A stretch of 64,000 nucleotides of DNA from NCBI GenBank assembly GCA_963728665.1, contig CAVSLG010000018.1:43762-107761 (forward strand), written 5' to 3'. Each line of letters starts with the position of its first letter. Positions within the stretch are counted from its first letter, which is position 1. The stretch comes from an uncultured Actinomycetes bacterium (GTDB taxonomy: Bacteria; Actinomycetota; UBA4738; HRBIN12). This document shows, piece after piece, positions 1 through 52,298 of this stretch. The notes beneath the pieces were generated by a model. The model searched no databases, was not told the origin of the DNA, and saw only the letters and a list, made by a program, of their open reading frames with translations. The translations under genes and the position numbers were made by a program.

Positions 1-2100
1 GGGTCAGGTCGCCGCTCGGCGCCCCGCTCGCACTGATCGAGAAGGAATCCGCGAAGCTTCCGACGCTCGGCACGAACGTCGCGTCCAACCGGTCTCGGGT
101 CACCGTGTAGACCATGATGCCGTTGCCCGCGCCGGCCGTCCTCGCGAAGTACGGGAGCTCAGGATCATCGGGCTTGATCGAGGAGCCGGAGCGCCCGAAG
201 GTCCCCACGACCTGGACGACCGTCCCCGCGCCCTTGTCCATCACCCCCGCGCCGCTGTTGGCGACGCAGTCCTGATCGAAATCCCCGAGCACGAACGACG
301 GACACGTCCCCGGCACGAGGGCGAGCTGCTTGCTGCGTTGGTAGTTGTGGTGGTGCCCGGCCAGGACCAGGTCGACCTTCTTCTCGAGCAGGAGGTTGAA
401 CAGCGGCTGGCCGATCGGGCAGCCGGAGTTCGATGCGGAGATGCACGGGTAGTGCATGCCGACGACGATCCACCGGATGCCCTCCGCGCGAGCGTCGTCG
501 ATCGAATCGGAGAGCCACCGGTAGTGCACGTCGTTCAGCCGTACCCGTAGGTGACGTTCTCGATCTGAGGTCGGGCGAGATCATGAACACCCGCATGAGG
601 GGGCGTCCGCCGGATAGTCGAAGTAGTACTCGGCGCCGTAGTCCTGCTCCAGACCCAGGGTCGACCCCAGCCGGTCCGGCAGGCACGCGGCATGGTTCAT
701 GATGTAGCCGTCGGCACCGTTTTGGTCCTCGTGGTTCCCGGCGACGATCTCGAAGGGGTAGGCCGGCCCGAGGTTCGGCAGCCCTGCCTTCACCCAGTCG
801 CACCATGCGGCGTCGGTCGGCGTCTCGTCGTAGTCGAGGTCGCCCAGCATCAGGAAGAAGTCCGTCGCCGAGGCGTCCAGGGCGGCGAGACTCGCCACTG
901 CCCTCGACGTCGTCCCCGAGTCTCCGGCCGCTGCGAACGTGAACGAAGCCGACGACGGGGGAGCGGACGGGGTCGTCACCTCGGCCGGCTCCGAGGGATC
1001 GGAGCGGTTCCCGCTCGGATCGACCGCGACGACCGTGTATCGATAGGTGGTCTCCGCGACACGCCGTCGTCGACGTAGGTGATGCCCGCGGTGCTCTCGA
1101 TCTCGGCGTCGTCGCGGACGATCGACGTATCTGGCGACGCCGACGTCGTCCTGGCTCGCCGTCCAGCTGAGCTCCACGCGGGTCGGACCGGTCGCGGTGG
1201 CCACCAGGCCGGTGGGGGCCGTGGGGGGCGACGTCCACCACGTTGTCGACGAGGACCGCGACCGGCTGGGAGGCGCCGGCGTTCCCGACGGCATCGCGCG
1301 CGATCGCGGTGAGCTCGTGGGCGCCGTTGGCGACGGACACGGAATCCCACGGGATCACGTAGGGCGCGGACGAGTCGGTCGCGACGGTCTGACCGTCGAC
1401 CTGGAGGTCCACGGAGACGACCCCGACGTCGTCGTGCGCGTCCACGCCGACGTCGACCGATCCCTGGACCGTCGCACCCGAGGAGGGGACGTGATCGAGG
1501 CGGTCGGCGTCGCCACGTCCGTCGGCGGCGCGACCGTGACCACGAGCTCCGGCCGGAAGCCCGCCTTGCCTTCCTTCGATCTGAACGAGATCTTGTTGCT
1601 CGTCGGGGTGGCGATCCGCATGCTGAACTGGCCGTCTCCGGTCACGAGCGTCGACAGGTCGACCTCGTACCAGGTCGCGGCCGAGATCGCGCCGAGGGTG
1701 GCCAGGGGCGTCGGGTCGGCCGGCGGTGCGGTGTTCCAGTTCATGGTGCTCTCGCTCCACGTCGTGTTGGCCACACGAGAGAACACGCCACCGAATGACG
1801 CGCCGTCGGTCACGTAGAGGCGAAGCTTCGCGCTCTCGACGATGTCGGATCCCACCCCCGAGACCGTGAACCGCAGGAAGGAGTGCCGCACGGGTGAGTT
1901 GTCGGCCGCGAGAGAGGTCTCCGAGCCGCCGGTCGCCGTGGGCTGATCGGCCCGCACGGTGGTATCGGCGGTCGGAGGGAACGTGAGGGTCCGGGTCGCT
2001 GCCGGAGCCGGCGGAGCGGTCAGCGATGCTCGCGGCCGTAGCGGCGAGCGTGAGCGCGACGAAGAGCGCCGATCGGGCACTCCCTCGTCCGTCGCCGCTC
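1..2100 (-). CDS. Secreted purple-acid-phosphatase-like metallophosphoesterase with an N-terminal DNRLRE-like beta-sandwich domain and an FN3 domain. The 3' end runs off the window start. The reading frame is broken at least 3 times.
   Basis: Minus-strand translation gives the metallophosphatase motifs LGDLDYD, GNHE, VVGMHYP and AGHHHNYQR (the GHxH-Y-R of purple acid phosphatases). An FN3-like segment (LVATATGPTRVELSWTAS) is present. The N-terminal domain carries LRLYVTDGAS...TWSESTMNWNTAP. A signal-peptide-like stretch (SALFVALTLAATAAS) sits in a different frame near 2030-2090. The frame switches near 580, 1300 and 2030. Confidence 0.6.
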
Positions 2101-2451
2101 GCACGTCGCCCCCATCCGCTCGTCTCGTGGCGACCCTACCGAGGCGCCGGCGGCCCCACCCCATGCAAGCCGCGTATCCCCGCTACGTCCGCGTCGGTCG
2201 GCCGGTGCGCTCCCGATCGGGTCCCGCGTAGGGCATCTACGACGATCCACGCATGTCCGTGGACGACGGAGAGCGAGACTCCGTACTACGTCGTGGCCGG
2301 GGCACCCGATGCTCCGGATCGGCGAGAGACGGAGATCGGGGCGCACGTGGGGATCTCGCAGCGGACAGCGGGTATGGCATGAGGGGTCGGTAGCGCGTGG
2401 CGGTGCTCCACTCCCCGCGGTCATCGACGTTGCGGGGCCGGACCCTCGATC

Positions 2452-3756
2452 GTGGACGCGGCTCGTGCGGGCCGGCGTCCCGGCGGCCGATGTGATCGCG
2501 CTCGCGGTCGCGGTCGCGATCGCGGGTCTCACCCCGTGGAGCGTCGCTCTACGCCGGCTTCGTCCTCCTGGGGCTGCATCTCGATCCGGCGCGAGCGGGC
2601 AGGATCTGCCCGCAGGTTGACGACCGATGCCGGATGGCTGCTCGCGAAGGGCGCGGCGCCTCTCGTCGTGCTCCTGCCGGCGGCCGCAGCGCTCGGCGCC
2701 GACCCGAACTGGGCCGTCGTTGGTGTCCGCTGGCCGTCAGCCTGCTTGCTCCTCGGGCGTGGTGCTGCGTAGCGGTCTCGCGCAGGGCCCGCGTCGCGGG
2801 TATGGTCGCCGAGCCCACGCTCATCGTCGGCGCCGGCGAGGTCGCGGAGCATCTGGCCGAGATCCTCGCCCAACATCCCGAGTACGGCTTGCGCCTCGTC
2901 GGGTCCGTCGACGCCGCGGGACGCCGGGTGGGGAACGTGCCCATGCTGGGGGATCCTCGCGACCTCGGGGTGCTCATCGAGACCCACGGCGTCCGTCGCG
3001 TCGTGATCGCCTTCGGCGTCTCGGAGCGGGAGCTGGTCGCGACCCTGCGGTCGGCCGAACGATCGTCCGCGGAGTTCCACGTCGTTCCTCGACTCTGGGA
3101 AGCGAGCGCCATCGCCCGGCGGCGGGCAACGTGGACGACGTCTGGGGCGTCCCGCTCGTCCAGCTGCGCCGACCGACGACGCGTTCGCGCAACCAGCTCG
3201 TGAAGCGGTGCTTCGATGTCGTGGTGGCATCGGTGCTGCTGGTGCTGACGCTGCCGCTGCTGCTGGTGCTCGCGGTCGCGGTCCGGCTCTCCGGCCCGGT
3301 CCGATCCTGTTCCGTCAGAAGCGCGTCGGCCTCGACGGCACGCTGTTCGAGATCCTGAAGTTCCGGTCCATGCACGAGATCGAGGACTCCGACACGAGAT
3401 GGTCGGTCGGTGACGACGGGGTCACCCGCGTCGGCAGGGTGCTGCGCGCCACGAGCCTGGACGAGTTGCCCCAACTGGTCAACGTGCTGAGGGGCGAGAT
3501 GTCGCTCGTCGGCCCCCGCCCGGAGCGGCCGCACTTCGCGGATTCGTTCGCCGCGACGGTCCCCCGGTACGAGGACCGGCATCGCGTGCGGGCCGGCATG
3601 ACCGGACTCCCGCAGGTCTGCGGTCTGCGCGGCGACACATCGATCGAGGATCGCGTCCGCTTCGACAACGCCTACATCGAAGGATGGAGCCTCTGGGCGG
3701 ACTGCTCGATCATGCTCCGCACCGCCAGGTGCGTGCTGACGGGACAGGGTGCGTGA
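2452..3756 (+). CDS. Polyprenyl-phosphate sugar phosphotransferase (WbaP-type bacterial sugar transferase), the initiating enzyme of glycan assembly. At least 3 frameshifts.
   Basis: TM-rich N-terminus around 2450-2800. CoA-binding-like segment (LIVGAGEVAEHLAEIL...). Catalytic C-terminal domain with PILFRQKRVGLDGTLFEILKFRSM, DELPQL and SLVGPRPERP. The pieces lie in three different frames; 2634..3203, 2627..3358 and 3208..3756 overlap. Confidence 0.65.
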
Positions 3757-4810
3757 GCACGCGGTCATCTCGACCCGCCGTCCTCGAGCGAACGAAGTGG
3801 AGCGCTCCCCGACTTCCTCATCATCGGGGCGATGAAGTGCGGGACGACGAGCCTGTACCACTACCTGCGTGATCACCCCCAGGTCTTCATGCCGTCGATC
3901 AAGGCCCCCGAGTTCTTCGCGGAGGAGGGGAACTGGGGCCGAGGGATCGAGTGGTACCGGCGACAGTTCGAGGGAGCGGGTCCCGATGTCGTCGCGATCG
4001 GTGAGGCGTCGAACGTGTACACGAAGTACCCGCGATACCAGGGCGTGCCGGCTCGGATCGCCGAGCACATCCCCGACGCCCGCCTCGTGTACGTGGTCCG
4101 CGATCCGATCGACCGGATCCGCTCCCACTATCAGACGCGGCTCACCGAGGGAACCGAGCGGGCGCCGATCGGCCGTGCGGTTCGAGAGAACCCCATCTAT
4201 CTCGACTACAGCCGGTACGCGATGCAGCTGGATCGGTACCTCGACCACTTCCCTCGGGAGCAGCTGCTGGTCATCACGGCCGAGGACCTGCGTGGCGACC
4301 GGCGGGCGACGCGTCCGGCAGGTCTACGAGTTCCTCGGGGTACGTCCCGATCACGTGCCGAGGACATGGACCGGACCTTCTACGAGACGAGGCATCGCGC
4401 GCCGAGGTCTCCGGTGCCGCTGTGGGTCCGCAAAGGCCTCAAGCGGCACCTGCCGGCCGCGAAGCGCGCGAAGGAGCTCGAGAACAACGTGGTCCGCGCC
4501 CTCCGGGGCCTCCGTCGCACGCCCGAGGCGCCATCCGCAGCTGCCGGAGCGCCTCGTGATCCCCGACGAGGTGCGCGCCGAGCTCGCCGACGCCCTGCGC
4601 GACGACGTGCGGAGGCTCCGTCCCTTCCTCGGGCCGGGCTTCGACGGGTGGGGGATCGCGCTGAACCGAGGGATCGCCGAGACCGGCCGTGGGCTGATCG
4701 CGGCACGGAGAAGATGCGTGAGGATCGAGCCGACGAGCCCACGCGCCCGGACCTCCTACGTCATCGGCACGTCCCCCCCGACGTTCATCGCTGCTACAGA
4801 TGCGGGGTGA
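3757..4810 (+). CDS. PAPS-dependent carbohydrate sulfotransferase (Sulfotransfer_1/3 type). Reading frame broken about 4 times.
   Basis: 5'-PSB motif LPDFLIIGAMKCGTTSL at 3805-3860. 3'-PB-like RLVYVVRDPIDRIRSHY. Homologous C-terminal pieces alternate between frames 3832..4845 and 3869..4810. Confidence 0.6.
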
Positions 4811-4937
4811 CTGCCGAGCTGAGGGATCCAGAGGGGAGCGGGTGAGAGGTCTCGCGCCAAGCGCAGTCGCGTTCGGCGTGAGCGTGCCTCGAGGAGGCAT
4901 CCTCGCCGGGGCGGCGCCGCCGCGTGAGGAACCGGTC

Positions 4938-6801
4938 ATGGGAGGGTCAGGTATGCGGCGTCGAACTCGACAACTGATCGCACGCTCACTGAGCGTGGTT
5001 CTTAGCATTGGCGTGGTCGGGACGGGCACCGCGCATGCGCTGAACAGCACGACGCAGCCTCAGCTCACGCCTCAACCACCTGATCCGGACCTCGCCGTTC
5101 CAGGGATCGTCGACCGCGGTGCGCGACAACGAGGGCAGCGCGTACGTCGCGGGTGACGACGCGCTGTGGATGGCGTCGGACAACGACGACGCGCTGTTCG
5201 AGGTCGACCGCACGACCGGCGCGCTGCGCCGGAAGGTCGCGCAGGCGGACTTCATCGATGCGCCGCGCTTCGGCGTCGGCGGCAGCGCCGGTCAGGCGCG
5301 CACCGAAGACCTCGAGGCGCTCGCCTACGACGCGAACGCCGACGTCCTGTACGCCTTCTCCGGGAGCACGAGCGCGACCCCGACCTTCTTCCGCCTGACA
5401 CGTGATGCGAACAACCGGTTCCAGGTGCAGTCGTGGCAGCCCATGCCGTCGGAGTGGACCGGTGCGGGGTGGCGCTCGGCAGACGGTCTCACGTACGTCG
5501 CGAACGGCTCGACCATCCGCACGTACGACTTCGCCACGAACAGCCTGGGGCCGTCGTTCTCGATCTCGGGGCTCTCCAAGATATTCGGCCTCGACTTCGA
5601 CGATACGACCGGCGATCTGCTGGCCGTCAACGGCAGCGAACGGCTCTACCGGGCGTCGATGACCACCAGGACCCTCCTGCCCGGATGGACCGGCATCAGC
5701 CTCACCGGTCTCGGGTTCCTCGACACCCGCGCGGTCGAGGTCATCGGTGAACAGTTGCTCGTCACCGACGGCGCCGACTCCAGCGCGCGGCCGACATCGG
5801 ATCCCATGTCCCACGCCGTCTTCGTGCTCGACGTGACGCGGACCCAGGCGGGCCAGCTCCGACCGCGAGCTTCACCGCGACGCCGACCAACGGCAAGGCA
5901 CCCCTCGTCGTGAACTTCACCGACACGAGCAGCGGCTCGCCGACGAGCTGGGCCTGGACCTTCGGAGACGGCGGCACGTCGACCTCGGCGCTCGCCCTCG
6001 CACACCTACGACCACACCGGGACCTTCACGGCGACGTTGACCGTCACGAACAGCCAAGGGTCGAGCTCGGCGTCCCGCACCATCACCGTCAGCCAGCCGT
6101 CGGCACCGACCGCGAGCTTCACCGCGACGCCGACCACCGGCACGGCGCCCCTCGTGGTGAACTTCACCGACACGAGCAGCGGCTCGCCGACGAGCTGGGC
6201 CTGGACCTTCGGGGACGGCGGCACGTCGACCTCGCGCTCGCCCTCGCACACGTACGACGGCTCCGGGACCTTCACCGCGACGTTGACCGCCACCAACACG
6301 CTGGGGTCCAGCTCGACCTCGCAGACGATCATCGTCAGTACCCGGCCGTCATCGCTCCCTCCGACGATGCCCAGGTCAACCTGTCGGGCACGTCCTCCCG
6401 GGGTCCGCTCCGAGCTTCAGCGCGGACGGTTCGCCGGTGAGCGATGGCCTGCTCAAGTTCACCGTCAACGTCTCGGGCCAGATCACGGGCGCCAAGCTTC
6501 GCCTGTTCTGCGTGGACTCCTCGTCCGTCGGGCGGCACCGTCTTCGCCGCCGCCGAGACCAACCCCCCGTGGAGCGAGGGCACCGTGACGTGGGCGACCG
6601 CCCCGGTTGCCGGCGCGAGCTATGGCTCCCTGGGGGCGGTCAAGGTCGGGGACCTGGTACGAGGTCGACCTCGCGGCCCTCGTGACGGCGAACGGCACGT
6701 ACAGCCTGCGGATCAAGAACACCTCGTCCAACGGCGCGGATTACGCCACGAAGGAGGGGGCGGCCGGATCCGCTCCCCAGCTCGTGGTGACGACGGCCTG
6801 A
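4938..6801 (+). CDS. Secreted multidomain protein: signal peptide, uncharacterized beta-propeller-like N-domain, 2 PKD domains, C-terminal DNRLRE-like domain. At least 4 frameshifts.
   Basis: Signal peptide MRRRTRQLIARSLSVVLSIGVVGTGTAHA. Two PKD repeats (FTATPT.G.APLVVNFTDTSSGSPTSWAWTFGDGGTS...SHTYD..GTFTATLT.TN). C-terminal KLRLFCVDSSS...PWSEGTVTWATAP...TWYEVDL. Segments are spread over frames 4800..5156, 5119..5913, 5910..6440, 6037..6588, 6444.. and 6607..6801. Confidence 0.5.
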
Positions 6802-6897
6802 CCGCTCGGCTCGGTGCCGCGGGTCCTCGTTCGCAGCGCTCGTCCAGCTCGTCGAGCCGGCCGACGTTGACCACTTGGCACTCTCATGGCTATCCTG

Positions 6898-6924
6898 TTA
6901 GCACTCACCCAGCGTGAGTGCTAA
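6898..6924 (+). promoter_or_regulatory. CIRCE operator (HrcA binding site) upstream of groES
   Basis: Perfect inverted repeat TTAGCACTC-N9-GAGTGCTAA, 47 bp upstream of the groES ATG. Confidence 0.85.
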
Positions 6925-6970
6925 CGAGACTTGGGAACGGACCGCTGACCGCAAGGAGGAGACGAGCACC

Positions 6971-8989
<2,019 letters not shown>

Positions 8990-9000
8990 CGAACGATCGT

Positions 9001-9061
9001 GGCGGGTCTCGGACCCGCCCGCTGAGAACCCACGGTGGGGCGGGCTCGTGCCCGCCCCACC
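9001..9061 (+). terminator. Two GC-rich stem-loops immediately after the groEL stop; candidate intrinsic terminator
   Basis: ggcgggtc-tc-ggacccgcc (9001-9019) and ggtggggcggg-ctcgtg-cccgccccacc (9034-9061). There is no U-tract, as is common in high-GC actinobacteria. Confidence 0.45.
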
Positions 9062-9091
9062 GTGCGTTCCCGCGGGAATACACTCGACGAG

Positions 9092-10150
9092 ATGTTCGAG
9101 GAGCTGATCCGCGGATGGGACGGCGAGCACGTGGTCGTGCGGTTCGACGAGCCGTCGGGAACCTGGATGCTGGTCGGGGTGCATTCCACCGTGCTCGGTC
9201 CGGCGATGGGCGGCACCCGCATGAAGGCGTACCGCTCGCCCGATGAAGGCCTCCACGACGTGCTCCGCCTCTCGCAGGCGATGACGATGAAGCAGGCGGC
9301 CGCCGGTCTCGACTTCGGCGGCGGCAAGGCGGTGCTCGCGGTACCGGCCGTGCCCCCACCCGGCTCGTCGCAACGTCGTGAGCTGCTGCTCCGCTACGGC
9401 GACCTCGTCGAATCGCTGGGTGGCGCGTACGTGACGGCCGCCGACATGAACACCGGTGAGGCCGACCTCGACGTCATCGGCGAGCGCACGATGCACGTGC
9501 TGGGCCGTTCTGTCGTGTGCGGAGGGTCGGGAAGCTCGGCCGGCGCGACGGCCCTGGGAGTGTTCCACGGCATCCGGGCGAGCGTGCGCCAGGCGTTCGG
9601 TGACGAGGGCCTCTCGGGTCGGCATGTGCTCGTGCAGGGGGTAGGAGCCGTCGGGTCGCGCCTCGCAGAGCTCCTGCACGATGCCGGAGCACAGCTGACG
9701 ATCGCCGACCTCGACAACGATCGCGCGACGGCGCTTGCGGCATCGCTCGAGGTCGAGTCGGCGCCAGCGCACCACGTGTTCGACACGGAATGCGACGTGT
9801 TCTCGCCCTGTGCCACCGGTGGTCTGCTCTCGGCCGAGTCGATCCCCTTGCTTCGGTGCCGGGTGGTGGCGGGTGCCGCGAACAACCAGCTCGCCACGTC
9901 GTGGGACGCCGATCGTCTGCACACCCGCGGCATCCTGTACGCGCCCGACTTCGTGATCAACGCTGGCGGCGTGATCCACCTCGTGGGCTACGAACGGCTC
10001 AGTTGGGATGAGGCGCGCATGACGGCCCGGGTCGCCGGCATCGGTCAGACGCTGACCGACCTGTTCCGGCGGGCCGAGGCCGAGGGCATCACGACCGCAG
10101 CAGCCGCGGACCGGCTCGCGACCGAACGCATCGAGGCCGCTCGCGGCTGA
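9092..10150 (+). CDS. Glu/Leu/Phe/Val dehydrogenase family enzyme (leucine/valine dehydrogenase-like)
   Basis: MFEELIRGWDGEHVVVRFDEPSGTWMLVGVHSTVLGPAMGGTRMKAY...AAGLDFGGGKAVL... Rossmann motif VQGVGAVGSRLAELL. The length of about 350 aa fits Leu/Val dehydrogenases. Confidence 0.8.
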   Translation: MFEELIRGWDGEHVVVRFDEPSGTWMLVGVHSTVLGPAMGGTRMKAYRSPDEGLHDVLRLSQAMTMKQAAAGLDFGGGKAVLAVPAVPPPGSSQRRELLLRYGDLVESLGGAYVTAADMNTGEADLDVIGERTMHVLGRSVVCGGSGSSAGATALGVFHGIRASVRQAFGDEGLSGRHVLVQGVGAVGSRLAELLHDAGAQLTIADLDNDRATALAASLEVESAPAHHVFDTECDVFSPCATGGLLSAESIPLLRCRVVAGAANNQLATSWDADRLHTRGILYAPDFVINAGGVIHLVGYERLSWDEARMTARVAGIGQTLTDLFRRAEAEGITTAAAADRLATERIEAARG

Positions 10151-10718
10151 TCGCGCGGTGGGAGAAGGGGTTTCTCCGGGCGTCCGATGCCGAATGGATC
10201 CGGCCGCGCCGACACGTTGCAGACGAGGGGCCTCTCGACCAGGGGTCGCCGCCTCCGGTCGCGGGGCCTCCGCGCGCGCCCGCACCGGAAACGCGATCGA
10301 CATCCGTTCGGCAAACCCCGCGCGGTGTGCAGCGCGGTCAGCGACGCCGGAGGTGCGGGACGGCCGCACGGCCGCACGCCGTCATATCGACGAACAGGAA
10401 CTGGGTCGAGACCCTGGCATCGTCGCTCGATCGCGTCGGGCGAAGGAGGCCGGTCGACTTCACCGCGGTGAGCGCGAGCTCCTCGACCGGTCAACGGCCC
10501 GCATCGGTCCCTGAGGGTTGCATCGGCAGACATGAGGGCCGTAGGGTGATTGATCACGGCTGAGGTGGTGACGGAGGCGGATCCGCGCTCGGGGCAGCAG
10601 TTCGGTGGTAGGCATCGAGCAGGTGACGAAAGAGCACGCCTAGTGGCAACCTGGGGTAGGTGATCCGGAGCTCCGCGTTCGGGATCCTGCGCGAGCCGAG
10701 GTGAAGAAGGGGTAACTC

Positions 10719-13688: not shown

Positions 13689-13755
13689 CCGAGTCTCCGG
13701 GACACGGACGCGACGGGAGCGGGCGACAGTTCTTTCGGGCCGTTCTGAGTCCGTG

Positions 13756-14805: not shown

Positions 14806-14872
14806 CTTTCCATGGCCTTCGAGCGGTCGATCCATAGCATCGACGGCCCAGGGAGGCATCGGCGCTCGTCGG

Positions 14873-15796: not shown

Positions 15797-16727
15797 GATC
15801 GCGAGACATGCTCACAGCACCCGCTTCGACCAACAGAATCCCTTCCTGCCTATCTTTCGCACGGGGCACAACCTCGAACGCTCGCAGAGGGACGCCGAGG
15901 GCCTCCAGTTCGGCTCGGCCCGGGACGCCGGGAGCGGGACGGATCAGCCCGAGCAGCGAGTCGGCTCTGAACGGCAGAGTGAAGGGGAGAAGCTCCGCGA
16001 GGCGCATCGTCGCGTATAACGGCTGCCAGGGTACGGGGACGAAGCGACACGTGCGACCATCCCAAGACGCCAACGTCGAGAGCAGGTCGCGGAAATCGAC
16101 GGGATCGGGATTGGCAACGCCGACCGGCCGGGTCGGAGCCTCCGTCGCTTCGGCCGCCGCGGTGACCACCGCGACGAAGTCCTCCTGGTGCACGGTGTAC
16201 TGGCGCATCTCGCCGATGGGAACGGGAACCAGCGGGAGTCGCACCAACCTCCTCAACAAGGCGATCATGCCGCCCGCTCTCTCTCCGAACACGAGGCCAG
16301 GCCGGAGCACCCAACCACCGATCTGCAACGTCGCTGCCTCGATCGCGAGCTTGGCTCGCCCGTACAGCTGAGTCGTGCCTTCGTATGCCGACATACTCGA
16401 GAGCACGATGACGCGAGGGACCTCGGCCGCCGAGGCGGCGCGAAGCAGCCTCCGGGTCCCTCCGATGTTCACTCTCTTGATGTCCGAGGGGCGAGTCAGC
16501 GTGAGGTCGTAGGCGCAGTGGATGAGCACATCCACGCCAGCGAGCAAGCCCTCGTCGCACGGGGCCGCCAAGTCGAACTGCCGAGCCTCGCCGTCACCCT
16601 GAACCGTCGAGCGAACGAGCGATATCGAACGCCACCCCGAGGTGCTCAGTGATCGGCGGATCAGGCCTCCGAGGTAGCCGTGCGCTCCGGTGATCGCCAC
16701 GGTCCTCTGTGCTCCCTCTGTCGTCAT
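15747..16727 (-). CDS. NAD-dependent epimerase/dehydratase (extended SDR)
   Basis: N-terminal VAITGAHGYLGGLIRRSL (GxxGxxG Rossmann). YGRAK resembles the YxxxK catalytic dyad. Overlaps the downstream GT2 start by 50 bp. Confidence 0.7.
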   Translation of the reverse strand: MTTEGAQRTVAITGAHGYLGGLIRRSLSTSGWRSISLVRSTVQGDGEARQFDLAAPCDEGLLAGVDVLIHCAYDLTLTRPSDIKRVNIGGTRRLLRAASAAEVPRVIVLSSMSAYEGTTQLYGRAKLAIEAATLQIGGWVLRPGLVFGERAGGMIALLRRLVRLPLVPVPIGEMRQYTVHQEDFVAVVTAAAEATEAPTRPVGVANPDPVDFRDLLSTLASWDGRTCRFVPVPWQPLYATMRLAELLPFTLPFRADSLLGLIRPAPGVPGRAELEALGVPLRAFEVVPRAKDRQEGILLVEAGAVSMSRDRVRLHARSVVTLPRIR

Positions 16728-18322
16728 CGGTAGAGGTCCAGCGATCGACTCGCGATGCGATGGGCATTGGCCATGATCGTCAGCGTGAAGGTCGTTGCCG
16801 GGATGTTAGGAAAGGTGGCGGCGTCGACCAAGTGGATCCGCTCCCGGGGAGCGGTCTGCCGAGCAGATCGCTTCCGAGCCTCGTCACCGGCTTCTCCTGA
16901 TGAGGGAAGCTGCCTCCGAAGTGGTAGCTCTTCGCACCGCCCGAGAACACGACGTATGGCATCACAGGCCACAGATCGAGGTGGCGAGCCGAGCGGATGA
17001 CACGCGCGAACACGGCCCGCAGCATCTGGTTCTCACGCCAACGGACCTCCTCCCTTCGGATCTGGAAGGGGGGAGGGCGCCTTCTGTCACGGGTGCGCGG
17101 ATCTGCAGTCGAAGGCTCGGTGAGGCCCACGACGGCAGGTACCCGAGCGCCACTGAGAATCGCCGGAGGAGCTGGTCCCTCGCGGGGCGAGAGGCACGGT
17201 GACGAAGGAATGCCGGGAGCCCGTCCTCGAACGCTGGGTCATAGGTATAGAAGTGAAGCAGCGATAGGTCGACTCCGCCACCGCCTGGGCTCACCAACAT
17301 GTTGAACTGGTTGAGCGTGAACTGGGGTTCGACCCTGGGGTCGGTGGCGGTCGGGGTCAGGCTGAAGAACGGCAGAGCGAACTGAGCGGCTTCGTAGAGT
17401 CGGATCGTCGAATCGAACAGCCCCAGCGAGTGTGCGGCGATCCGCGTGGAACCGATCGCGCCGCATGCGATGTAGACACGGTCTGCCTCGAAACGTCGAA
17501 TGCGGTCCGACCCACGCTCCTGCGCCCAGACGAACGCACGCCCATCATCTTCCCCGACTCGCGCCGCCAGAAGGTCACCGAGGTAGGTGATCCGTCCGGC
17601 GAGTCGCAGCCGGTCGATGGTCGAGGAAGCAGAATAGATGAGCGAGTATGGACACCCGGTCATACACAAGCCGCATCGGACGCAGGCGGAGGCCTCGAAG
17701 GCGAGTCTCGCTCGTCCGACGGTGACGCCGTGTCGTGCGAGTTTCGTGCGGTTGGCTGCGTAGTTGCGCAGGACTTGAGCGGTCCTGTCGGATGGGCTCG
17801 GCAGGGGGGTCGGCACGCCGATCAACGGGAAGAGCTCCGCGAGATCGTCCTCTTCCCCCGCCAGCGGCACCTCATCCAGGATCGCCCGATAGTGCGGTTC
17901 CATCTCCGCTGCTGAGATCGGCCACGTATCGAACGTTGCCTCGGTGAACGGCATGACCTGAGATCCCCATACGTTGCTGAAGCCCCCATATGCCCCTGAC
18001 ACCAAGGCCCGATTCACGTCGGGGCTCGGGCTGATGTCTCGGAGCTGTCCCGTGTCCCGGAAGGGGAAGTCGGAGCCGTAGGCTGCTTCTCGGGGATGCC
18101 CTTCACGCCCGAATCGACCGGTCGGGCCGAGACTTGTGAGAGCTTCAACGGATCCCACCCATCCTGCGTTTGGGTAGAGAGCTCGTCGACGATCGCGCGA
18201 CGATCTTGCTCCAGCCGCAGGCCGAGATCGATCACTGTGATCTGGAGGTCGCTCCGCTGGGAGAGCGCCATGGCTGCGCCAGCAGCCGCCGGTCCCGAAC
18301 CGATCACCAAGGCACTGGTCAT
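16724..18322 (-). CDS. GMC-type FAD-dependent oxidoreductase. At least 2 frameshifts.
   Basis: N-terminal MTSALVIGSGPAAAGAAMAL (FAD binding; frame 18014..18700). Central body in frame 16962..18158. GMC C-terminal signature IHLVDAATFPNIPATTFTLTIMANAHRIA in frame 16724..16972. Confidence 0.55.
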
Positions 18323-18405
18323 CGCAACCCCAGGTGTCCAGCGACCCCCGGGCGATCGCGGTCCCGAGGTCTGCTGAGGACGCTGAGGAACCTGCCGGCG
18401 TCGGG

Positions 18406-19413
18406 TCACGTCAGCGAGCAACCGATGCCGAGCCGCCGGCTTTCGTCTCGAACCAACTGAAAGGTCTCCGAGGAGGTCGGCGAGTGCACGGTTCGGTTCA
18501 TCGAACGACCCTGCAAGAAAGCGCGCGCTGCGGCCGACATGGGGTCGTAGCTGTGGGCGTTCTTCGTCGGGTAGCTCTTGAGTGCGTGGTCCGGCAACCC
18601 GAGGAAGGTGAGCACGTCGCGGTAGGCACGCTGGGGTTGAGCGAAGAAGTCGCCACTGTCCACGATGAGCATCTGGCTCCGCGAGAGATGGCTCAGCCAT
18701 CGTCGCAGTTGGTCGACGTATATCCCGCGGGCGACGTACGAGTGGTGTTGATGCTCTTCACTATGGTAATTGGGATCCGCGGACAATCGCTCGGCCTCCC
18801 CTGCGAGGCGTTCACCCTCCATCCTCAATGCGTCCTCGAACGGCAACGTCTCGTAGCCTCGTTCCACTTCGTGCCGATACTGGGAGTAGGCCTGCGCAAC
18901 CGGGTCTCGGAGCATCACGATGATCCGCACGTTCGGGAGTGTACTCGCGACCCTGGGGGGAACGTTCGGGTGGAGGAGGTAGTAGGGGCTGCTCTCTCCC
19001 GTGAGCGTTCGATGGTCGGCTCGTCTCGACACGAGCGACCTGTATCGACGGGTTGGGAAGTGGGACGCGTACCAGCTGTCGCCTCGTTCGTAGTTGACGT
19101 CGAAGTAGTGAACGCCCTTGCAAAGGACAGCCGGAACGACGGCGGGGTGCTGCGACAGGTAGGTGTACATCGACGTGGTCCCGCAGCGCTGTGCGCCGAT
19201 GATGAGGAAGTCCGGCAGGTCTCGGTATCGATGCGTCGCGGCTGTGATGCCGCGAGAAGCCCTCCAGAGGGTTCTATGCGCTCCTTTCAGGATGCCGGTC
19301 GGCAGGCTCATGTTCCGAGGGACTCGTACCGGCCTTCGTCGGCGAGCGGTACCGTTACGCTGGGAGTCGAACCCCTCAGACGTTCCCTCACGATCGTGCG
19401 CAACACCCGCCAT
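18406..19413 (-). CDS. PAPS-dependent carbohydrate sulfotransferase (second copy; intact ORF)
   Basis: LPDFLIIGAQRCGTTSMYTYL (5'-PSB) and RIIVMLRDPVAQAYSQY (3'-PB). A likely start is M at about 19311 (MSLPTGILKG). Confidence 0.7.
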   Translation of the reverse strand: MAGVAHDREGTSEGFDSQRNGTARRRRPVRVPRNMSLPTGILKGAHRTLWRASRGITAATHRYRDLPDFLIIGAQRCGTTSMYTYLSQHPAVVPAVLCKGVHYFDVNYERGDSWYASHFPTRRYRSLVSRRADHRTLTGESSPYYLLHPNVPPRVASTLPNVRIIVMLRDPVAQAYSQYRHEVERGYETLPFEDALRMEGERLAGEAERLSADPNYHSEEHQHHSYVARGIYVDQLRRWLSHLSRSQMLIVDSGDFFAQPQRAYRDVLTFLGLPDHALKSYPTKNAHSYDPMSAAARAFLQGRSMNRTVHSPTSSETFQLVRDESRRLGIGCSLT

Positions 19414-19428
19414 CCATCGGGGATTGCT

Positions 19429-20229
19429 TCAGGTTCTCACTCCAGAGATCCTCGCGTGTTCATAACTCGGGACCTCTGCGACGCGGATGCGAGCCTTCGC
19501 GAGTCGAACGTTCATCAATGTCTCCACCTCGAACCCGTCGCAGTCGACATTGAGATGCGGCAAGCATTCAACGAGGAAGGCATTGTAGCCGTAGCAGAGG
19601 TCTGAGTAGCTGCTCCGGAAGAGGAGGTTGACCAGGCGGGTCAAGACAGCGTTGCAAGCCCTGCGCACACCCGTTATGTCTTGGCTCCCACCTCCCTTGG
19701 CAAAACGCGTCCCCCTTCGCGAATTGCGCACCTTGCGACAACGCATCGAGGAACTTCGGGATCTCGCCGATCGGCGGACCCGTCCGCATCAGCATCACGA
19801 TGATGTCTCGGTCGTGGCCCTGAAGCCAGCGGCCAGGGCGTTGCCCTTCCCTTTGCCGACCTGCTGCACCACCCGCACGCGGGGACAGAGCCTCCTGGCC
19901 ACCTCGATGGTCTCGTCGCTCGATCTGCCGTCAACGAGCACGACTTCATCGACGACCGCCGGTAGGAGCGGGAGGATGAATCGGAGGTTGTCAGCTTCGT
20001 TCATGGCTGGGATGACGACGCTTACGGTCGGTTTGATACTCCTCACCGGGGGTGGCTCAGCGTGCGCAGTCGCCACTGGGTGAGGGGATCCCTCAATCGA
20101 ATACAGAGGACGTGGTACGTGGCCTTGCGATCTTGCCGGAACCTGCATCTGCGCCGACCTCCGTCGTGCCCAATGACCATGCTCGTATGGTTCGGATGCC
20201 CTCCCCCGTTTGGGGGATGCCTTATCCAC
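19429..20229 (-). CDS. GT2 polyprenyl-phosphate sugar synthase-like glycosyltransferase (DPM1/GtrB-like). One frameshift near 19780.
   Basis: N-terminal half TVSVVIPAMNEADNLRFILPLL...EVVLVDGRSSDETIEVARR...QVGKGKGNALAAGF (frame 19795..20229). C-terminal half YGYNAFLVECLPHLNVDCDGFEVETLMNVRLAKARIRVAEVP (frame 19429..19746). Confidence 0.55.
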
Positions 20230-20268
20230 ACTAGCTGGTAGCTGCTCGCGAGGTCAACACGCCACAGG

Positions 20269-21230
20269 CTATGGAGCGGGGCCCGGAGCGTGATCCGTCG
20301 AGGATGAGGCTTCGTATCCGAAGCGGCGCAAGAGCGGCCAGGTCAGCAGGCTCACGTATCGCTGCTCCCGACGAGTCAAATCCGTCTTCCATCCCTCGTC
20401 CGCTTTGAGCTCGACCGATCCGCGGGCGAACCTCACCGGATTGCCAGAGATGTTGTGCACGACCGACAGCTGGACCCGTCGATCACCGTGGAAGGGAGGC
20501 ACCGCGTCGGCGATGCCGGTCCATCGCAGGATCTGGGCAACACGCAGGGCCGGATCGGCCACGAAGTCTTCGTGCCGCATCGTCATGCAATGTGACGACC
20601 TTCCCCACTCCGCCTCGATCAACGAACCTCGGTACAGCCAGGTGAGGGATGACCTGGTGAGCCCGTGTGAGTCCATCGTGCCGGCTACCCCAGCCTCGTA
20701 TCGAACACGCTTCTTCAAGCTCGAAGCGACCCCCCGGGGGTCCCGGACGAGGTGAAGGAAGTAAGGCCTCAGGCCGGGGATTCCCTCCGCGATCGCGGCA
20801 TGCCATGGCGTCTTCGAAGCGTCGACCAGAACCGTGCTCGGGGTGGCCGGCCGCTCGGTAGAGCGGTCCAGCAGTTGACGGTAAGCATCGGCTGCCGGTG
20901 CATCGAGTCGATCCACGCGGTATCCGCCTCTTCCGATCATCGTGTCCCCAAGCGGGCCATCGCGCGACGACCTCACGGTGAACCAAGCTCGATCCGCGCC
21001 GAAAGCACTGGTGGCGATCGGGGTCCAGAACTAACACCGGCTGAATTGCGCCTCACACCCGCAGGTCATATCGAGCCCGAATCCCGGCTCCCAGATGTTG
21101 TTGACCTCACCGAGCGTGACCACTCCGGGCGTGCTTCCGAGCACGTTCGCTAGGATCGTGGAACCGCTCCGGTCCCAGCCGAGGATCAGAGGACCTCGCG
21201 TGCTCACCACGGAGGGACCGCCGAAGGTCG
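20269..21230 (-). CDS. Stf0-like sulfotransferase (third sulfotransferase; trehalose/sugar sulfotransferase family-like). Frameshifted near 21030.
   Basis: N-terminal PLILGWDRSGSTILANVLG (RSGST P-loop-like 5'-PSB of Stf0/PF09037; frame 21031..21486). C-terminal LHLVRDPRGVASSLKKR...HCMTMRHEDFVADPALRVAQILRW (frame 20269..20976). Confidence 0.5.
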
Positions 21231-21499
21231 CATTGACGAACAGATCCGGCCCCGGGCACGATGCGGCGATGCATGGACCACGATCAGGCGCTGGAGCTAT
21301 TACGTGGCCATGTTCTGGGAGCGGTCCTCGTGCACCAGGAGCTCTTTCGTCCGTCGTGGGTTCGGGGCGGCAGGCCTGCTGCGCCGCAACAGCGAAGCCT
21401 ACGTGTTGATGTCGTTCCTGCCACTCGGATCTGTTGGGGGCGACGCAGAACCCAGCGGTCGCGCCGGCGAGTCGAGATCGGCCCATCGTCGGGGGGTCA

Positions 21500-23200
21500 G
21501 GGTGCGTGGTTCCAGTGATGGCGCTCCTCTGTCGCCTTGCCGTGGGTGATGCTGTCGCACGTGACCTCGATCTCCCCAGGCCGTGGTCGGCCTCTGAGAG
21601 GGGTCCTGGGCCTCCTGGTGATCTAGGCTACCTGGGGGTGCACAAGGTGGATCCTGCCACCCACACAAGCCAGGATCGACGGTCGGGCCGTGATCCGACC
21701 CGGCCCGCGAGTGTCTCTACATCGCGGTTGGGCGATTGTGGCAGCGGTACATCTCGATTCGGTGCCTGTGTCGCTCCTTCGGCTTTCGCGGAGTGGCCAG
21801 GTCAACATCGAACCGTGTCCGGCAATCTCGTCGTCCCCGTGTACTTCGGCGTCGTCGCCATGAGTCGAACGGGGTCATCCGGCTCACTCTGGTACTCGCT
21901 GCTGTGCTCATCTCTCTCTCTCGTCGAGGGCGAACTCCTGATGGGATCCTCCCCTCCAGCCTGCTGGACTCGGATCGCACGCGCGACTTGGCGTTCATCG
22001 CCCCAGCAGCCATGTCCTCTACTTCGACCTGTGGCGCAGCCCCGCAACGTCATTAGGCACCTGTTGAGGATGGCCTCGACCAAGCCGTCAGCCATCGCGG
22101 CGCAGTGATCCCAACGTCCCTAGGTGAACCGGAGTTGCATCTCCAGGGCGTAGAGGCACGCAAGCCCCCCGTGTTGCTGATCGTCGACCCCGAGCCGGCT
22201 GAGCGTCGGCGAGGTTGCCTCGAGAGCGTCCACGAGTGCCCGCCCCGGGCTCCCCTTCCTGCTCGAAGACCTTGGGAAGTAGTAATCGAGGGCGTCGAAC
22301 CCGATGGGAACGTCGGGCGCGGTTCGTCCCGAGTCCCACACGATCAGAGTTCCGGCGCGCCAAGCTAGGTTCCAGGGAGCTCGATCCCCGTCAACCGGCC
22401 GAACCTGAACTCTCATCGGCCCACCGTGCTCGATCGTGGCTGGCGAGCACGGCCGTGACCTCGCTGGACACGGACATGGAGTCCGGCCGACGCGAACCAA
22501 CGCGAGGTATGCCTCCTTGAGCCTTCGTATTCCGGTGCCATCGAGTGACGCGATCTCCTCCAGCACATCTGCCCCCGGGGGGTGCTTCGAGCTTTGGTAA
22601 ACCGAGCACCGATGAAGTCACGCAGACCGTGCGATGATTCCACGTTCCACGATGGAGAACCCGGGGACGACCAATGTGCCGGGCTGTAGGCGCTGGCGAG
22701 CCTGAGGAAGTTTCCTGTTCGACATCAGCGTGCTGGTGAGCGGAATCCACCCGATCTTCGCGAAGCCAAGGGTCTCCCCGCCATCCCGTGAATGCAACCT
22801 AAGATGGCTTCTCGTTCGACGACGAGACCCAAACAAGCATGAGAGTTCCACTGCGGATTACCCAACGGCGTCGGCGAGGAACTCGTGCAGTGTTCGATCG
22901 CCGTGTCCCTAAAAGTGGAGGCGGATCGCAACCTGATCCTTCACCGAGCAGTCTGGTCGTGGCCGCAGGCTCAGCGAGCCAACCCAGACCGCGGGTGAAC
23001 GCGTCGCCCATAGAATCTGCCTCGGTCCAGCGAGTCATCGCCGCCGCAGTGGTCCGGGGATCATGGAGAGGCAATAGCCCGAGCACACCGTGCCGCAGGA
23101 CGAGCGCGAACTCACGCCACCCGGGATCGAGTGGCCGATCGAACTGACCCGGATGTCTTCGGGGCGAAACAGCTCAGTCGTGAGCCGCTCCCGCTCCCGA
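21500..23200. other. Patch with lower GC (about 55-62%) and no convincing ORF; probable decayed gene remnants
   Basis: Only short, stop-ridden ORFs on both strands. The composition departs visibly from its flanks. Confidence 0.3.
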
Positions 23201-23389
23201 CTCACGGAACCTGTCACTTGGATCCCGTGCCGAGCTGGCGCCTTCCTCGCAGCCTGCCTGCGATCAAGTCGGTCAGCTCGCCTAGGTCGAGCGGGATCCG
23301 CCAACGCCAGACGATGGTCGCGTATGCCGCAGTTGCCACGACTAAGAAGACGAGCAACTCGGTAGATCGTTGCCAAACGCCCTGGTGAC

Positions 23390-24790
23390 GAGCAGCCCTC
23401 CGAAGCCGAACACGAGCAGCGACGCCCCAGCGGCCACCTCCAGCCTGACCGAACGGGTGGAACCGTGGACGAACGCAGCTCGAGGAGTGGGAGCGTGTTC
23501 GCGAGCAGCCGGCTGACGGCCCAGGCGATGGCGGCGCCGTCGAGTCCGATCTTCGGGATGAGCCAGAGGTCAGAGCGACATTGGCGAAGAACGGACCATC
23601 GAGTTCACGAGGCTCCACATCGTCTTGCCTGACATCACGAGGAGCACGTCCACGGTCCCGAGCCCGCTGCCGACCAGGGCAGAGCCCGCGAGGATCGCGA
23701 CGACGACGTCGCGTCGTCGAAGCCGCTGCCGAAGATGCGGAGGAGCGCCGGCGCAAAGATCCAGACCGTGAGGAAGATCGGCCACGTGAGCCCGACCAAC
23801 CATCCGGTCGAGACCTGATACACGGACTGAGCCCGGACCGTTTCCTCCCCGCGCGAGCAGCTTTCAATAGATGGGCTCGACGACCTGCCCGATCGCCTCT
23901 ACGGCGATGAACCCGACCTGCAACAGTCGGGTGGCAACGGTGTAGACGGCAGCCGCCGTCGGTGAGATCAGCGCCCCGACCAACACGACGTCGAGCCAGA
24001 GCACGCCGACCCGGAACGCCGACGCGAACGCTCGCGGCAGCGAGAAGATCCAGAACCCGGATTGTGTTGCCCCAGGCGATCCGATGGTGAGCCGCCACCT
24101 GCGAACCGTCGTTCCCACAAAGCCCGAAGCCATGCCACGCCGATCACGAGCGACAGCGCCACGCCGGCTCCCCAGCCCCCGACCAGCCAGGCCGTACCGG
24201 CCGAGATGATGACGCACACCAGTCCGAAGATCAGCTGGGTACCTGTGCGCACAAGGCGCTCGGCCGTGACCGTCGGCACCATGGTGCCGTAGCCCCTAGT
24301 GGCGGCGAGACGAGAGGTTCAGGGCGCCGATCGGGACGAAGAAGGCGAGGACCGTGACCATCTGGGTCACCGTCTCCACCTCGCGCCGCCCGCCGAGCGC
24401 GCTGCCGAGCTCGGCGGCGTGGCCATGCCGACGATCGAGGCGATGACGGCGACGCCCATCACGGGCACGAGTTGACGGTCAACAGCCGCCATAACCCGTT
24501 CGGCCGTCGAGCGCGAGGGCTCGCGCCGTGAACCGCACCATACCGTGTCGGCGCCGAGGGTCGCGCAGATCACGACGATCGTGAACAACGCGATCGACTC
24601 GAAGAACGCGCCCGCCACCCGGCACCGAAGCCCCGGGTCACGACGAGGATCAGCAGCATCGACATCGCGCCGCCGACCGCGCTCCCTGCGATGTTGAGCG
24701 ACCCACCCTTGGCCACCGCTGCGATGTCTCGCGTCCTGGGTCGTGTGCTCATCACGGTCTCGAGTGCTCGACTGGGGACGATCGCCGTCA
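23390..24790 (-). pseudogene. Remnants of a Wzx-type polysaccharide flippase (polysaccharide biosynthesis protein family), fragmented into at least 5 frames
   Basis: The pieces IAAVAKGGSLNIAGSAVGGAMSMLLILVVTRGFGA (N-terminus), FFESIALFTIVVICATLGAD, AAVYTVATRLLQVGFIAVEAIGQVVEPIY and WPIFLTVWIFAPALLRIFGSGFDDA lie in different minus-strand frames (ORFs 24570..25109, 24367..24810, 23864..24217, 23635..23823). Confidence 0.45.
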
Positions 24791-25704
24791 GAAGCCACGT
24801 CCGGCGGCATTCAGCCATCTCATCAGACGTCCAGAGTCCAGGAGCCGGACCGCGACGACAGGCGCCGCGTAGGCCCGGATCTGACGCCAATCGAGCCGAG
24901 CCGCTTCTCGGGACGTTGCGAGGGCCCGCTTGCGGTGACCCGACGCCGCCTGCGCGAAGGCGCGCTGTCCAAGGATCCGCGCCAGTCCGCGCGGGTCCGA
25001 ATCGAACTCGGGCGTCTTGGCCACGAGGTAGGCGAGCGCCTCGTCGATCATCTCCCATCGATCGACGAAATACGATTGCTTGTGCCACTGCACGAGGGTC
25101 GTACATCACGGACCGCGACGATCGGCCGTTCCCGTGCCGCCCGGATGAGCCAGTCGTAGTCCTCGGCGTAGCTCCCCGGCAATCGTTCGTCGACCAGGCC
25201 GAGGTAGGAGTCGATGGCTGATCGCTTCACCAGGAAGGTCGACGGATGGGCGGCGGGGAGCCGATTCCTGATCAGATCGCCTATCGAGATGGACTCGCGA
25301 CCCGTGCGGCGTGGGATCCTACGGTCTCCGTGCGCGATGATGATGCTCCCGACGAGGAAGTCGACGCTGTCGTCGGACTGGGCGGCCGCCCATTGACGGC
25401 CGAGCTTCTGCGGAGCCCAGACGTCGTCGTCGTCGCAGAACGCTATCCACTCCGACCGAGACGCGAGGATCCCGGTGTTCCGTGCACCGGCGAGGCCCGG
25501 CGTCCTGTCGTTCGTGACCGTCGCGATCGAGATCTCTCGAGTCAGGGACGACAGCGTTGAGTCGACCTTCGTCTGATCGAACACGACGACGATCTCCCGT
25601 ATCAGACGCGTGTCCTGTTGGAGCATCCCTCGTATCGCGCGGCGAAGGAGTTCGGGGCGGTCCCGGGTCGGAACGATGACGGAAACCGGGGCGTCGGAAG
25701 TCAT
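24788..25704 (-). CDS. GT2 glycosyltransferase. One frameshift near 25090.
   Basis: PVSVIVPTRDRPELLRRAIRGMLQQ...EIVVVFD...AGARNTGILASRSEWIAFCDDDDVW (DxD). The C-terminus continues in frame 24788..25093. Confidence 0.6.
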
Positions 25705-26107
25705 GTCGGGTTCACCTCCGGCTGTCGGTCGTCTTCAACCCGCTCAGCACGTCGTCTGCGCGAACGGCTCCTGAGCACCGTGGACACGAGTCCGGCCAGG
25801 AAGACCCCAGCAACGGGAAGCAGCCAGGTGGGCGAGCCCAGCAGGGCGATGCTTACGACCACCAGATGAACGAGACGGATCCCGCGATCCCGATGATGAC
25901 TTTCGCGATGAGGTCTCGTGGAGTGGTGAGATCGATGACCAAAGATCCGGGAACCGTGAGGATGAAGAGCATGACGAACGGGAGCCTCACCTCGCTGCGG
26001 GCCCCGGAGATGGTCACGATGAGCACGCTCGTGGTCAAAGCGATCACCCATGCCAGGCCGGGCCGTCGACCCATCTGTCGCCAGAGCGCCGAGAGCGCGC
26101 GTGTCAT
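25704..26107 (-). CDS. Small polytopic membrane protein (GtrA-like?). One frameshift.
   Basis: Two ORF pieces (25853..26107 and the tail of 25701..26684) give about 130 aa with 3-4 hydrophobic helices. It lies between a GT2 and a large membrane protein. Confidence 0.3.
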
Positions 26108-27918
26108 GGTTCCTCCTTGAGCGTGAACACGACGGCGTCGCCCGATCGGAACGCGACCTCGAACTCGTCCGACGCCTCGAGAGCCGCCTGGATGTCGTCG
26201 AGCGTGCTCGGCAGTGCGGTACCGAGAGCTGTGACGGAGCGCCGCTGCGACTCCGTGAGGATGACGTAGCCGCCGTTGTACGTCTCGGAGTCACGGAGCC
26301 AGCTGGCGAGCGTCCCGGCGGGGTCGTCTCGCAGCTTCTCGAGGGTCTGGGCGTCGAGCGATCCACGTCGAAGTAGACGAACTGCTCGTACCGCCGATAC
26401 TGCCGTGGGTAATCCCTCGTGCCCTCGACGATCAGCGCGCCCGGCCTGGCGTGCTCCGTCACGTAGTCTGCCGCCGCCACCTCGTCGTCATTGAAAACCA
26501 GCCGATTGTCGATGCCGAACGCCGCAACCAACAGGCCAGACGTCGAACACGAGGAGCACGCCGGCGAGCGTGGCCACGGCGGGGATGCCCGGCCTGGCGC
26601 GGTCGACGGGGAACCAGAGGGAAGCGGCCAGGAAGGCGCCGAACGGGAGTGCGAACAGGTACGCGCGGAAGATGATCTCGCCACCGTAGGAACTGGCCAA
26701 GATCAGAACCGCGGGCACCACCGCGAGGAGCAGCACCCACCGGCTCGAGAGCTTGTGGTTGAGCCTTCGGATCAGTCCAAGCCCTGCGACCCCGACGATG
26801 CACGCGGTCAGCAGCCGGGCGACCGATGAGACGATGAACTGGTCACGGTTGACGAGCGCCGGAGTCACGAGGTTGTTGTCGAGGTTGGCCTGGAATCCTC
26901 CCAACTCCGCCGAGATCTTCCCGACGTTGTCGATCACGAAATCCCGAGCCGGGCCGAACGCCCACGCAGCCCCGAATACCATCATCGCCCCGACCGGCCA
27001 GGTCACGCGGATCACCCTGAAGAGCCGTAGGGTGGCGAGCGCAAGGATCGTGACGACCGGCGTGAGCTGGTGCGAGATCGTGATCGCCAGGAGCGAAAGC
27101 AAGACGACGGTCGAGAGGGCGGCCGCCTCAAACGTTCCTGGCGCCACGGCCTCATCTGCTCCCGGATCCGACCGGTGCGCGGACGTCGAGAACCATCGCA
27201 ACAGGATCATCATCACCACGAGGTAGAGGAAGAACGCGAGCGCCTGTGGAGCGAAGTAGTCCTGACCCACCCAGTTCCCGAGCTCGAAGATGAGCACTGC
27301 CGTCCAGACGAGCCGCCGGTCGGCCGAGAACCCCTTGAACAGCGCGTAGAGGGTGAGCGCATACAAGAGGTTGAAGAGGATGGGGGCCCACGTCGCGTAC
27401 GACATCGGTGAGTCGAGCCCCGCCTCGCGAACGATCCACGCGTTCAGGCCGAAGAACCCGGGCCAGTTGTGGTACGCGGGGAGCGAGTCGATCTGGGGGT
27501 CCACCCCTCCGGTTCGGAGGATGAACTCGACGATCCCGACGTGCTTCCATGCCCACGAGAACCGCAGGTGCTCGTAGATGAGCGCCGGCAGACCGTGGAT
27601 CATGACCGTGAGAGCCAGCACGTATACGCCGAGCAAGCGACTCGACACGTTCATGTAGAGGGCGCGCGTGTAGCCGATGATCATCGCCCCCAGGCAGAGG
27701 AGGGCGATGGGGGGCAAGATCGTGATGACGCCGAGTCCGGCAAGGTTCGCCTCGTCGGCCTGCGCGATCGCGGAGATCCACACGGTGATGACCGCGACGA
27801 TGAAGACGCCGTGGAAGGTCAGCTGATGGACAGGATCGCCTCGCGCCTCGGCCGTCGAGGTCTCTCCGCGGTCGAGGCCGACCGGTTCGGGACCCACACG
27901 AGGGTCACCGAGACGCAC
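26105..27918 (-). CDS. Large polytopic membrane protein with a C-terminal soluble domain (candidate GT-C-fold glycosyltransferase or polymerase). One frameshift near 26490.
   Basis: 476-aa ORF with at least 10 predicted TM helices (e.g. VFIVAVITVWISAIA, LLYALTLYALF, FFLYLVVMMILL). It continues after a frame change into a hydrophilic C-terminal domain of about 110 aa (...YVILTESQRRSVTALGTALPSTLDDIQAALEASDEFEVAFRSGDAVVFTLKEEP). Confidence 0.5.
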
Positions 27919-52253: not shown

Positions 52254-52298
52254 CGGAGCATCATGCCAACCCGGGGCGACGAACGGTGGACCTGCGGG

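Follow-up and report, generated by a model that had tools for sequence, protein, structure and literature searches.

Are genes that read as broken in a deposited assembly also broken in the organism? This question is raised by a stretch of 64,000 nucleotides of high-GC DNA (63–72% GC) from an uncultured actinobacterium (assembly GCA_963728665.1, contig CAVSLG010000018.1, positions 43,762–107,761; hereafter "the window"), in which genes for the synthesis of exopolysaccharides and sulfated glycans are interrupted by numerous frameshifts. An earlier note on this DNA had described breaks in the glycan and sulfation genes across positions 1–27918, and had proposed either that the pathway is decaying under relaxed selection or that the consensus is locally poor. 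The analysis described here indicates that the frameshifts are probably absent from the organism itself and were introduced as local errors of consensus in the deposited assembly. This conclusion is based on the place, size and context of the lesions, the lack of a relaxed-selection signal, a signature in which inserted bases copy a second allele, and the presence of lesions in housekeeping genes of related Nanopore bins.

To obtain relatives for comparison, a search was performed with the intact Leu/Val-type amino-acid dehydrogenase encoded at 9035–10150, which identified 40 related loci. The closest relatives (75–87% amino-acid identity) are bins from metagenomes that bear the label "uncultured Actinomycetes", and include several long-read bins of the Microflora Danica catalogue as well as short-read soil assemblies. 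Positions 1–10200 of the window were aligned by MAFFT with one Nanopore bin (L001) and two short-read bins (L007 and L008), and the gaps private to the window, which amounted to approximately 37 gaps of 1–2 bp, were counted. Within confidently aligned coding DNA, 30 such indels (18 insertions and 12 deletions, only rarely of 2 bases) were identified between positions 539 and 6644 (patch 1), and all 30 are confined to the window, as L001, L007 and L008 carry no private frameshifting gap in coding DNA. All four genes in this left-hand region are intact open reading frames (ORFs) in the three relatives, an outcome of the very comparison with orthologous genes that the earlier note had proposed, and unbroken orthologues of the four are present in nine related genomes in all.

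The first of these genes (gene A; 2–2236, minus strand), which runs off the left end of the window, encodes a secreted phosphoesterase with CBM96, Big_7, fn3 and Metallophos domains, as assigned by Pfam on the L008 orthologue, and is intact over more than 726 aa in the three relatives. Its indels are located at 539, 565, 602, 1059, 1126, 1228, 1487, 2025 and 2119; eight lie in confidently aligned coding DNA, and the ninth, at 2119, lies in the poorly aligned N-terminal part. The Bac_transf priming sugar transferase (2394–3756, plus strand), which is 452–453 aa long in relatives, contains 11 private indels between 2406 and 3297. A sulfotransferase of the Sulfotransfer_1 family (~3800–4664, plus strand) contains four (4312, 4356, 4535 and 4660), and a secreted PKD-PKD-CBM96 protein (~4846–6801, plus strand) contains eight (5069, 5838, 5846, 5987, 6337, 6395, 6529 and 6644). 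The breaks that had been reported gene by gene are therefore real but had been under-counted; for instance, the sugar transferase had been credited with "at least 3".

The lesions are strongly clustered, as had been claimed: patch 1 holds 30 events in 6102 coding bp, and the other coding DNA that was aligned (7523 bp) holds a single one (P = 6e-10); the right core of the window, in which approximately 9 kb was aligned with three relatives, contains no window-private frameshift in coding DNA. The 989-, 1022-, 1297-, 768- and 514-aa ORFs elsewhere in the window are uninterrupted, with contiguous Pfam domains, and the argument that a uniform indel rate is incompatible with such long intact ORFs is correct, yet the error rates of assemblies are not uniform. 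Rather than extending across the whole of positions 1–27918, the breaks occupy two patches, at ~0.54–6.64 kb and ~16.7–27.9 kb, and the 10 kb that lie between them contain only one lesion. This single lesion is located in groEL (7372–8989, plus strand), downstream of an intact groES gene that ends at 7270, and consists of one inserted C at 8757 (+1), which places the last ~77 codons out of frame in a gene that is otherwise strongly constrained (ratio of nonsynonymous to synonymous substitution rates, dN/dS, 0.07–0.15). The statement that housekeeping genes are intact is thus contradicted, and the view of the glycan and sulfation genes as the broken class fares no better, since a GT2 glycosyltransferase gene (14876–15796, minus strand), a gene for an NAD-dependent epimerase (15750–16727, minus strand) and the adenosine-5′-phosphosulfate (APS) kinase gene of the conserved core (50213–50833, plus strand) are unbroken. 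APS kinase, which is encoded directly after a type I phosphodiesterase gene (48813–50210), makes the sulfate donor 3′-phosphoadenosine-5′-phosphosulfate, and the supply of this donor for the sulfotransferases therefore appears to be intact. The lesions are grouped as two physical patches and not as a functional class.

If the frameshifts reflected real and recent pseudogenization, in which the production of exopolysaccharide or sulfated glycan has been lost and frameshifts accumulate under relaxed selection, the remaining sequence of the broken genes would be the place to look for its trace. This explanation draws on the fact that two distinct groups of genes with related functions are hit (the priming transferase, sulfotransferases, GT2, Wzx and secreted CBM96 proteins), that one nonsense substitution is present and that the lesions are present in the deposited record. 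When the four genes of patch 1 (A–D) were compared with relatives after removal of the indels, however, dN/dS for window-relative pairs was 0.15–0.35, indistinguishable from that of pairs of intact relatives, and the share of substitutions at codon positions 1 and 2 was the same in the window as in the relatives. The numbers of window-private substitutions in the four genes (74, 38, 16 and 55) are lower than those private to L001 (102, 64, 37 and 76), and are also below those of L007 and L008; the ratio of the window branch to the L001 branch is 0.43–0.73 in the broken genes and 0.25–0.77 in intact genes. After correction of the frame, genes B, C and D contain no in-frame stop, and gene A contains one, located in a poorly aligned N-terminal region in which the intact L001 and L007 genes show two and one stops, respectively; for this reason, it was not counted as a lesion.

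In bacteria, substitutions typically outnumber indels approximately tenfold. The accumulation of 30 indels in 6.1 kb by drift would therefore be expected to be accompanied by several hundred unconstrained substitutions, which are not present. The ORFs are disrupted relative to intact orthologues, as in a cluster of pseudogenes, but neither a raised dN/dS nor a longer branch was found. The mixed spectrum of nonsense codons, larger deletions, insertion elements and slippage events typical of pseudogenes is likewise not seen: patch 1 contains only 1–2 bp indels, with no deletion of more than 2 bp, no bias toward deletions, no nonsense codon in its well-aligned parts, no association with homopolymers and no insertion element noticed, although no search was aimed at such elements, and the one TAG codon lies in patch 2. 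The coding information is intact, and the damage is limited to the reading frame. Taken with the break in groEL, the unbroken GT2, epimerase and APS kinase genes, and two further observations described below, namely that inserted bases mimic alternative alleles and that similar lesions occur in essential genes of related Nanopore bins, these results make decay under relaxed selection quite improbable.

The character of the indels offers a second line of evidence. The run length at the indel sites is 1–2 in 29 of 32 events (mostly 1, with a maximum of 4), and only 3 of the 32 touch a run of three or more. The inserted base differs from both of its neighbours in 15 of 20 cases, and nearly all insertions (19 of 21) lie next to a third codon position. 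Moreover, for 11 of the 18 insertions of a single base, the added base is identical to the allele that relatives carry at an adjacent site at which the window shows a different base, compared with 3.4 expected by random placement (P = 0.0002) and 4.3 when placement is restricted to third-position junctions (P = 0.001). The insertion in groEL is an example: at 8757, the window reads GT-C-G, whereas L001 has GTG, and L007 and L008 have GTC. Such a pattern is expected if the consensus of two haplotypes writes both alleles of a single-nucleotide polymorphism (SNP) in succession, and it is not expected from natural mutation or from uniformly random error.

Several other sources of the indels were considered. 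Homopolymer error was rejected because the indels avoid homopolymers, and uniformly random indels, including randomly introduced ones, were rejected by the second-allele and third-position signals. An apparent link of the insertions with CpG or methylation motifs can be put down to third positions being rich in G/C; the contexts share no common motif. As a check for error bursts, mismatches unique to the window were found to be only mildly enriched within 4 bp of indels (0.079 versus 0.046), and the spacing between indels is close to exponential. Phase-variable switching of surface-glycan genes at contingency loci, by slipped-strand mispairing, also deserves mention, as glycan genes are classic targets of such switching; no indel, however, lies in a homopolymer or short tandem repeat long enough to be useful for it, and many hits in each gene would make no sense for a reversible switch, so that this explanation can be set aside as extremely unlikely.

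Lesions of the same type are present in other assemblies. Eleven conserved proteins were compared with all 40 loci, and frame switches were detected in 11 of 103 gene comparisons in the Nanopore-only Microflora Danica bins, which belong to the same clade, versus 0 of 49 in the short-read bins (Fisher P = 0.017). The broken genes are guaA in L001, L002 and L037; pcrA in L002, L003, L013 and L039; groEL in L002; the LeuDH gene in L036 and L040; and the phosphodiesterase gene in L003. The pcrA gene of L002, homologous to window positions 58071–59360, contains 12 private insertions of 1–2 bp within 1.3 kb; these lie outside homopolymers, and several match the allele of a neighbour. Kilobase-scale patches are therefore a property of these assemblies, essential genes included. 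The Microflora Danica catalogue was assembled with Flye (--meta --nano-hq) and a single round of Medaka, with no short reads (PMC12313526), and Nanopore-only bins below approximately 40-fold coverage are reported to retain frameshift errors (PMC9262707). As regards the window itself, the deposited record calls a 330-aa protein fragment (P0001; NCBI and ENA) that is identical to a piece of a broken gene in the second patch, which shows that the deposited sequence carries the lesions, and the length of the contig carrying P0001 (341,587 bp) suggests a long-read origin. Three features of an assembly artefact were thus found together: small indels in coding sequence that remains constrained, an effect on essential genes and on assemblies of the same technology but not on short-read ones, and second-allele sites. 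Of the two explanations offered by the earlier note, it is locally poor consensus that these results support.

The second patch (~16.7–27.9 kb) contains at least ~20 further lesions and lies in a segment that the nine closest relatives lack. The gene from which P0001 derives encodes a GMC-like flavoprotein with an Fe-S motif (16733–18322, minus strand); its homologues are 531 aa long. Deletions of 1 bp at ~18085, ~17074 and ~16847 divide its frame into four pieces, and these three are all that sets it apart from homologues of 65–71% identity. A sulfotransferase (aligned at 18511–19305 within 18409–21225, minus strand) has a frame change at its C-terminus, and a GT2 gene (19441–20253, minus strand) has at least three frame changes. 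A Stf0-like sulfotransferase (~20280–21225, minus strand) contains an in-frame TAG at 21031–21033 that replaces a conserved Glu. Further along, a kinase-like gene (aligned at ~22069–22779) and a Wzx/Polysacc_synt-like flippase gene (aligned at 23470–24633), both on the minus strand within 21300–24810, are present as pieces in several frames with stops inside the alignment. Another GT2 gene (25051–25734, minus strand) changes frame once close to the C-terminus. A polytopic membrane protein, for which the three minus-strand frames were read by eye, is represented by a 476-aa ORF (within 25051–27945, minus strand) that continues through two more frame changes to ~25860. A metagenome scan with the sulfotransferase at 18.4–19.4 kb yielded one distant match of 1.5 kb and no near-identical copy of this segment for base-level comparison.

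It is in this patch that a mixed explanation finds its candidates, in which most of the indels are consensus errors and a few genuine inactivating mutations are present in an otherwise functional cluster. The candidates are the TAG codon of the Stf0-like gene, a clean GAG-to-TAG change in a conserved Cys-Glu-Phe-Trp motif and the sole clear substitution-type lesion seen, and perhaps parts of the heavily fragmented Wzx and kinase-like genes. The region at 21.3–24.8 kb is the most fragmented and has the weakest codon-position GC signal, and no Pfam domain was matched by its stop-free fragments from 21.4 to 24.8 kb. Poor consensus yields substitution errors as well, however, and because 21.3–24.8 kb was compared with distant homologues only (28–36% identity), real and artefactual damage are inseparable there. 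A mixture of this kind is regarded as unlikely.

The favoured explanation, local consensus error, would operate as follows. The metagenome-assembled genome to which the long contig of the window belongs would have been built from long reads, probably from Nanopore reads alone. Within ~0.54–6.64 kb and ~16.7–27.9 kb, these reads would probably represent at least two strains that were present together and are separated by many SNPs, most of them synonymous; low local coverage of the haplotype that was assembled may have contributed. At SNP sites, consensus building and polishing would write both alleles in tandem, producing a 1-bp insertion, or drop the base, producing a 1-bp deletion, so that every gene within the patches would be broken whatever its function. 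Diversity between strains is presumably often concentrated in glycan loci, and this would explain the location of the patches.

Several points weigh against this explanation. The platform on which the window was sequenced, its coverage, a long-read origin for it and a mixture of strains are deduced indirectly. The second-allele test draws on three relatives only, and the third-position enrichment is weak for deletions (7 of 13). The indels lie outside homopolymers, unlike the textbook Nanopore error, and the TAG at 21031–21033 is a substitution and not an indel. Finally, the patches coincide twice with glycan and sulfation genes, a pattern that selection could also produce. A further alternative is that the indels are real, and that two glycan/sulfation sets and the C-terminus of one GroEL copy were inactivated in the very recent past of a soil actinobacterium by an unusual mutational process; this process would have to be insertion-biased, independent of homopolymers and free of a matching rise in substitutions, as might result, for example, from templated or error-prone repair on recombination tracts from diverged strains. 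Such a history is considered very unlikely.

The segment that carries the second patch has a clear outline. In all nine of the closest relatives, the blastn match to window positions 1–10144 joins directly to the match that begins at 48107, and the window therefore consists of a left core (1–10.1 kb), of which the Leu/Val-type dehydrogenase gene (plus strand) is the last gene, a 38-kb segment (10.15–48.1 kb; 10150–48100) absent from the nine relatives examined, and a right core (48.1–64 kb). Neither a tRNA gene nor a flanking repeat of at least 12 bp, both looked for as signs of a mobile element, was found at the borders of the segment. Beside the glycan cluster, it also contains unbroken genes for secreted enzymes, and Big_7 Ig-like domains are present in many of these: a phytase (10719–13688), five GH26-like proteins (13663–14805, 32012–34420, 42027–43034, 43183–45006 and 46380–47639), two DUF5122 beta-propeller proteins (28250–31318 and 34582–35979), a malectin-domain protein (35943–37949) and a glucose/sorbosone dehydrogenase (38027–39577). 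Two metagenome contigs in ENA (L042 and L043) contain neighbourhoods resembling the GMC-epimerase-GT2 and the GH26/PAP2/malectin arrangements of this segment.

The right core shows features of its own. A stretch of 140 bp at 48645–48785, between a minus-strand ORF (48110–48583) and the phosphodiesterase gene, has no counterpart in L001, L036 or L005. At 50835–53816, the two strands carry overlapping ORFs of great length (947 and 867 aa), which correspond to a minus-strand TreT-like GT4 glycosyltransferase gene (~50838–52124 and slightly beyond) and a plus-strand GMC oxidoreductase gene (~52335–53807), the surplus ORF length being an artefact of high GC content. Gene content varies among the relatives here: 50835–52337 is missing in L003, L004 and L005, and 52280–53814 is missing in L002. 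The minus strand at 60046–63939 encodes, without interruption, a 1297-aa protein in which an nSTAND1 NTPase is joined to an extended WD40 beta-propeller array; this gene adjoins pcrA, and a sortase gene (57005–57676) is nearby.

Annotated at face value, this locus would be described as an exopolysaccharide and sulfation pathway in decay, and an inability to make sulfated glycans would be ascribed to the organism. On the evidence obtained, these genes are almost certainly unbroken in the organism, and the main value of the analysis is a caution for annotation. The combination of non-homopolymer 1-bp insertions that adjoin third codon positions and copy the neighbouring allele, clustering over several kilobases and an unchanged dN/dS could be used to flag such patches in other long-read bins without access to the reads. 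Diversity between strains may also be high where such patches occur, and in this respect they are of some biological interest.

Comparison with known systems places the window as follows. Phase-variable glycosyltransferase and capsule genes are simple-sequence contingency loci; they show frameshifts as the window does, but the window has no repeat tracts at its indels and many hits in each gene. In some bacteria under relaxed selection, such as host-restricted pathogens, surface-polysaccharide loci are rich in pseudogenes, and these loci resemble the window in that a single pathway has several disrupted genes next to intact ones; the window differs from them in that dN/dS and branch length are not raised, no large deletion or insertion element was noticed, nonsense codons are almost absent and the indels are not of the slippage type. 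The window also resembles the errors of Nanopore-only long-read assemblies and metagenome bins (PMC9262707; PMC12313526), in which small indels fragment the gene calls while the orthologues are intact in short-read assemblies, and the same lesions are seen in housekeeping genes of the sister Nanopore bins. Textbook Nanopore errors lie in homopolymers and are spread along a contig, whereas those of the window avoid homopolymers, form two patches and carry the signature of both alleles, which points to collapsed strain variation.

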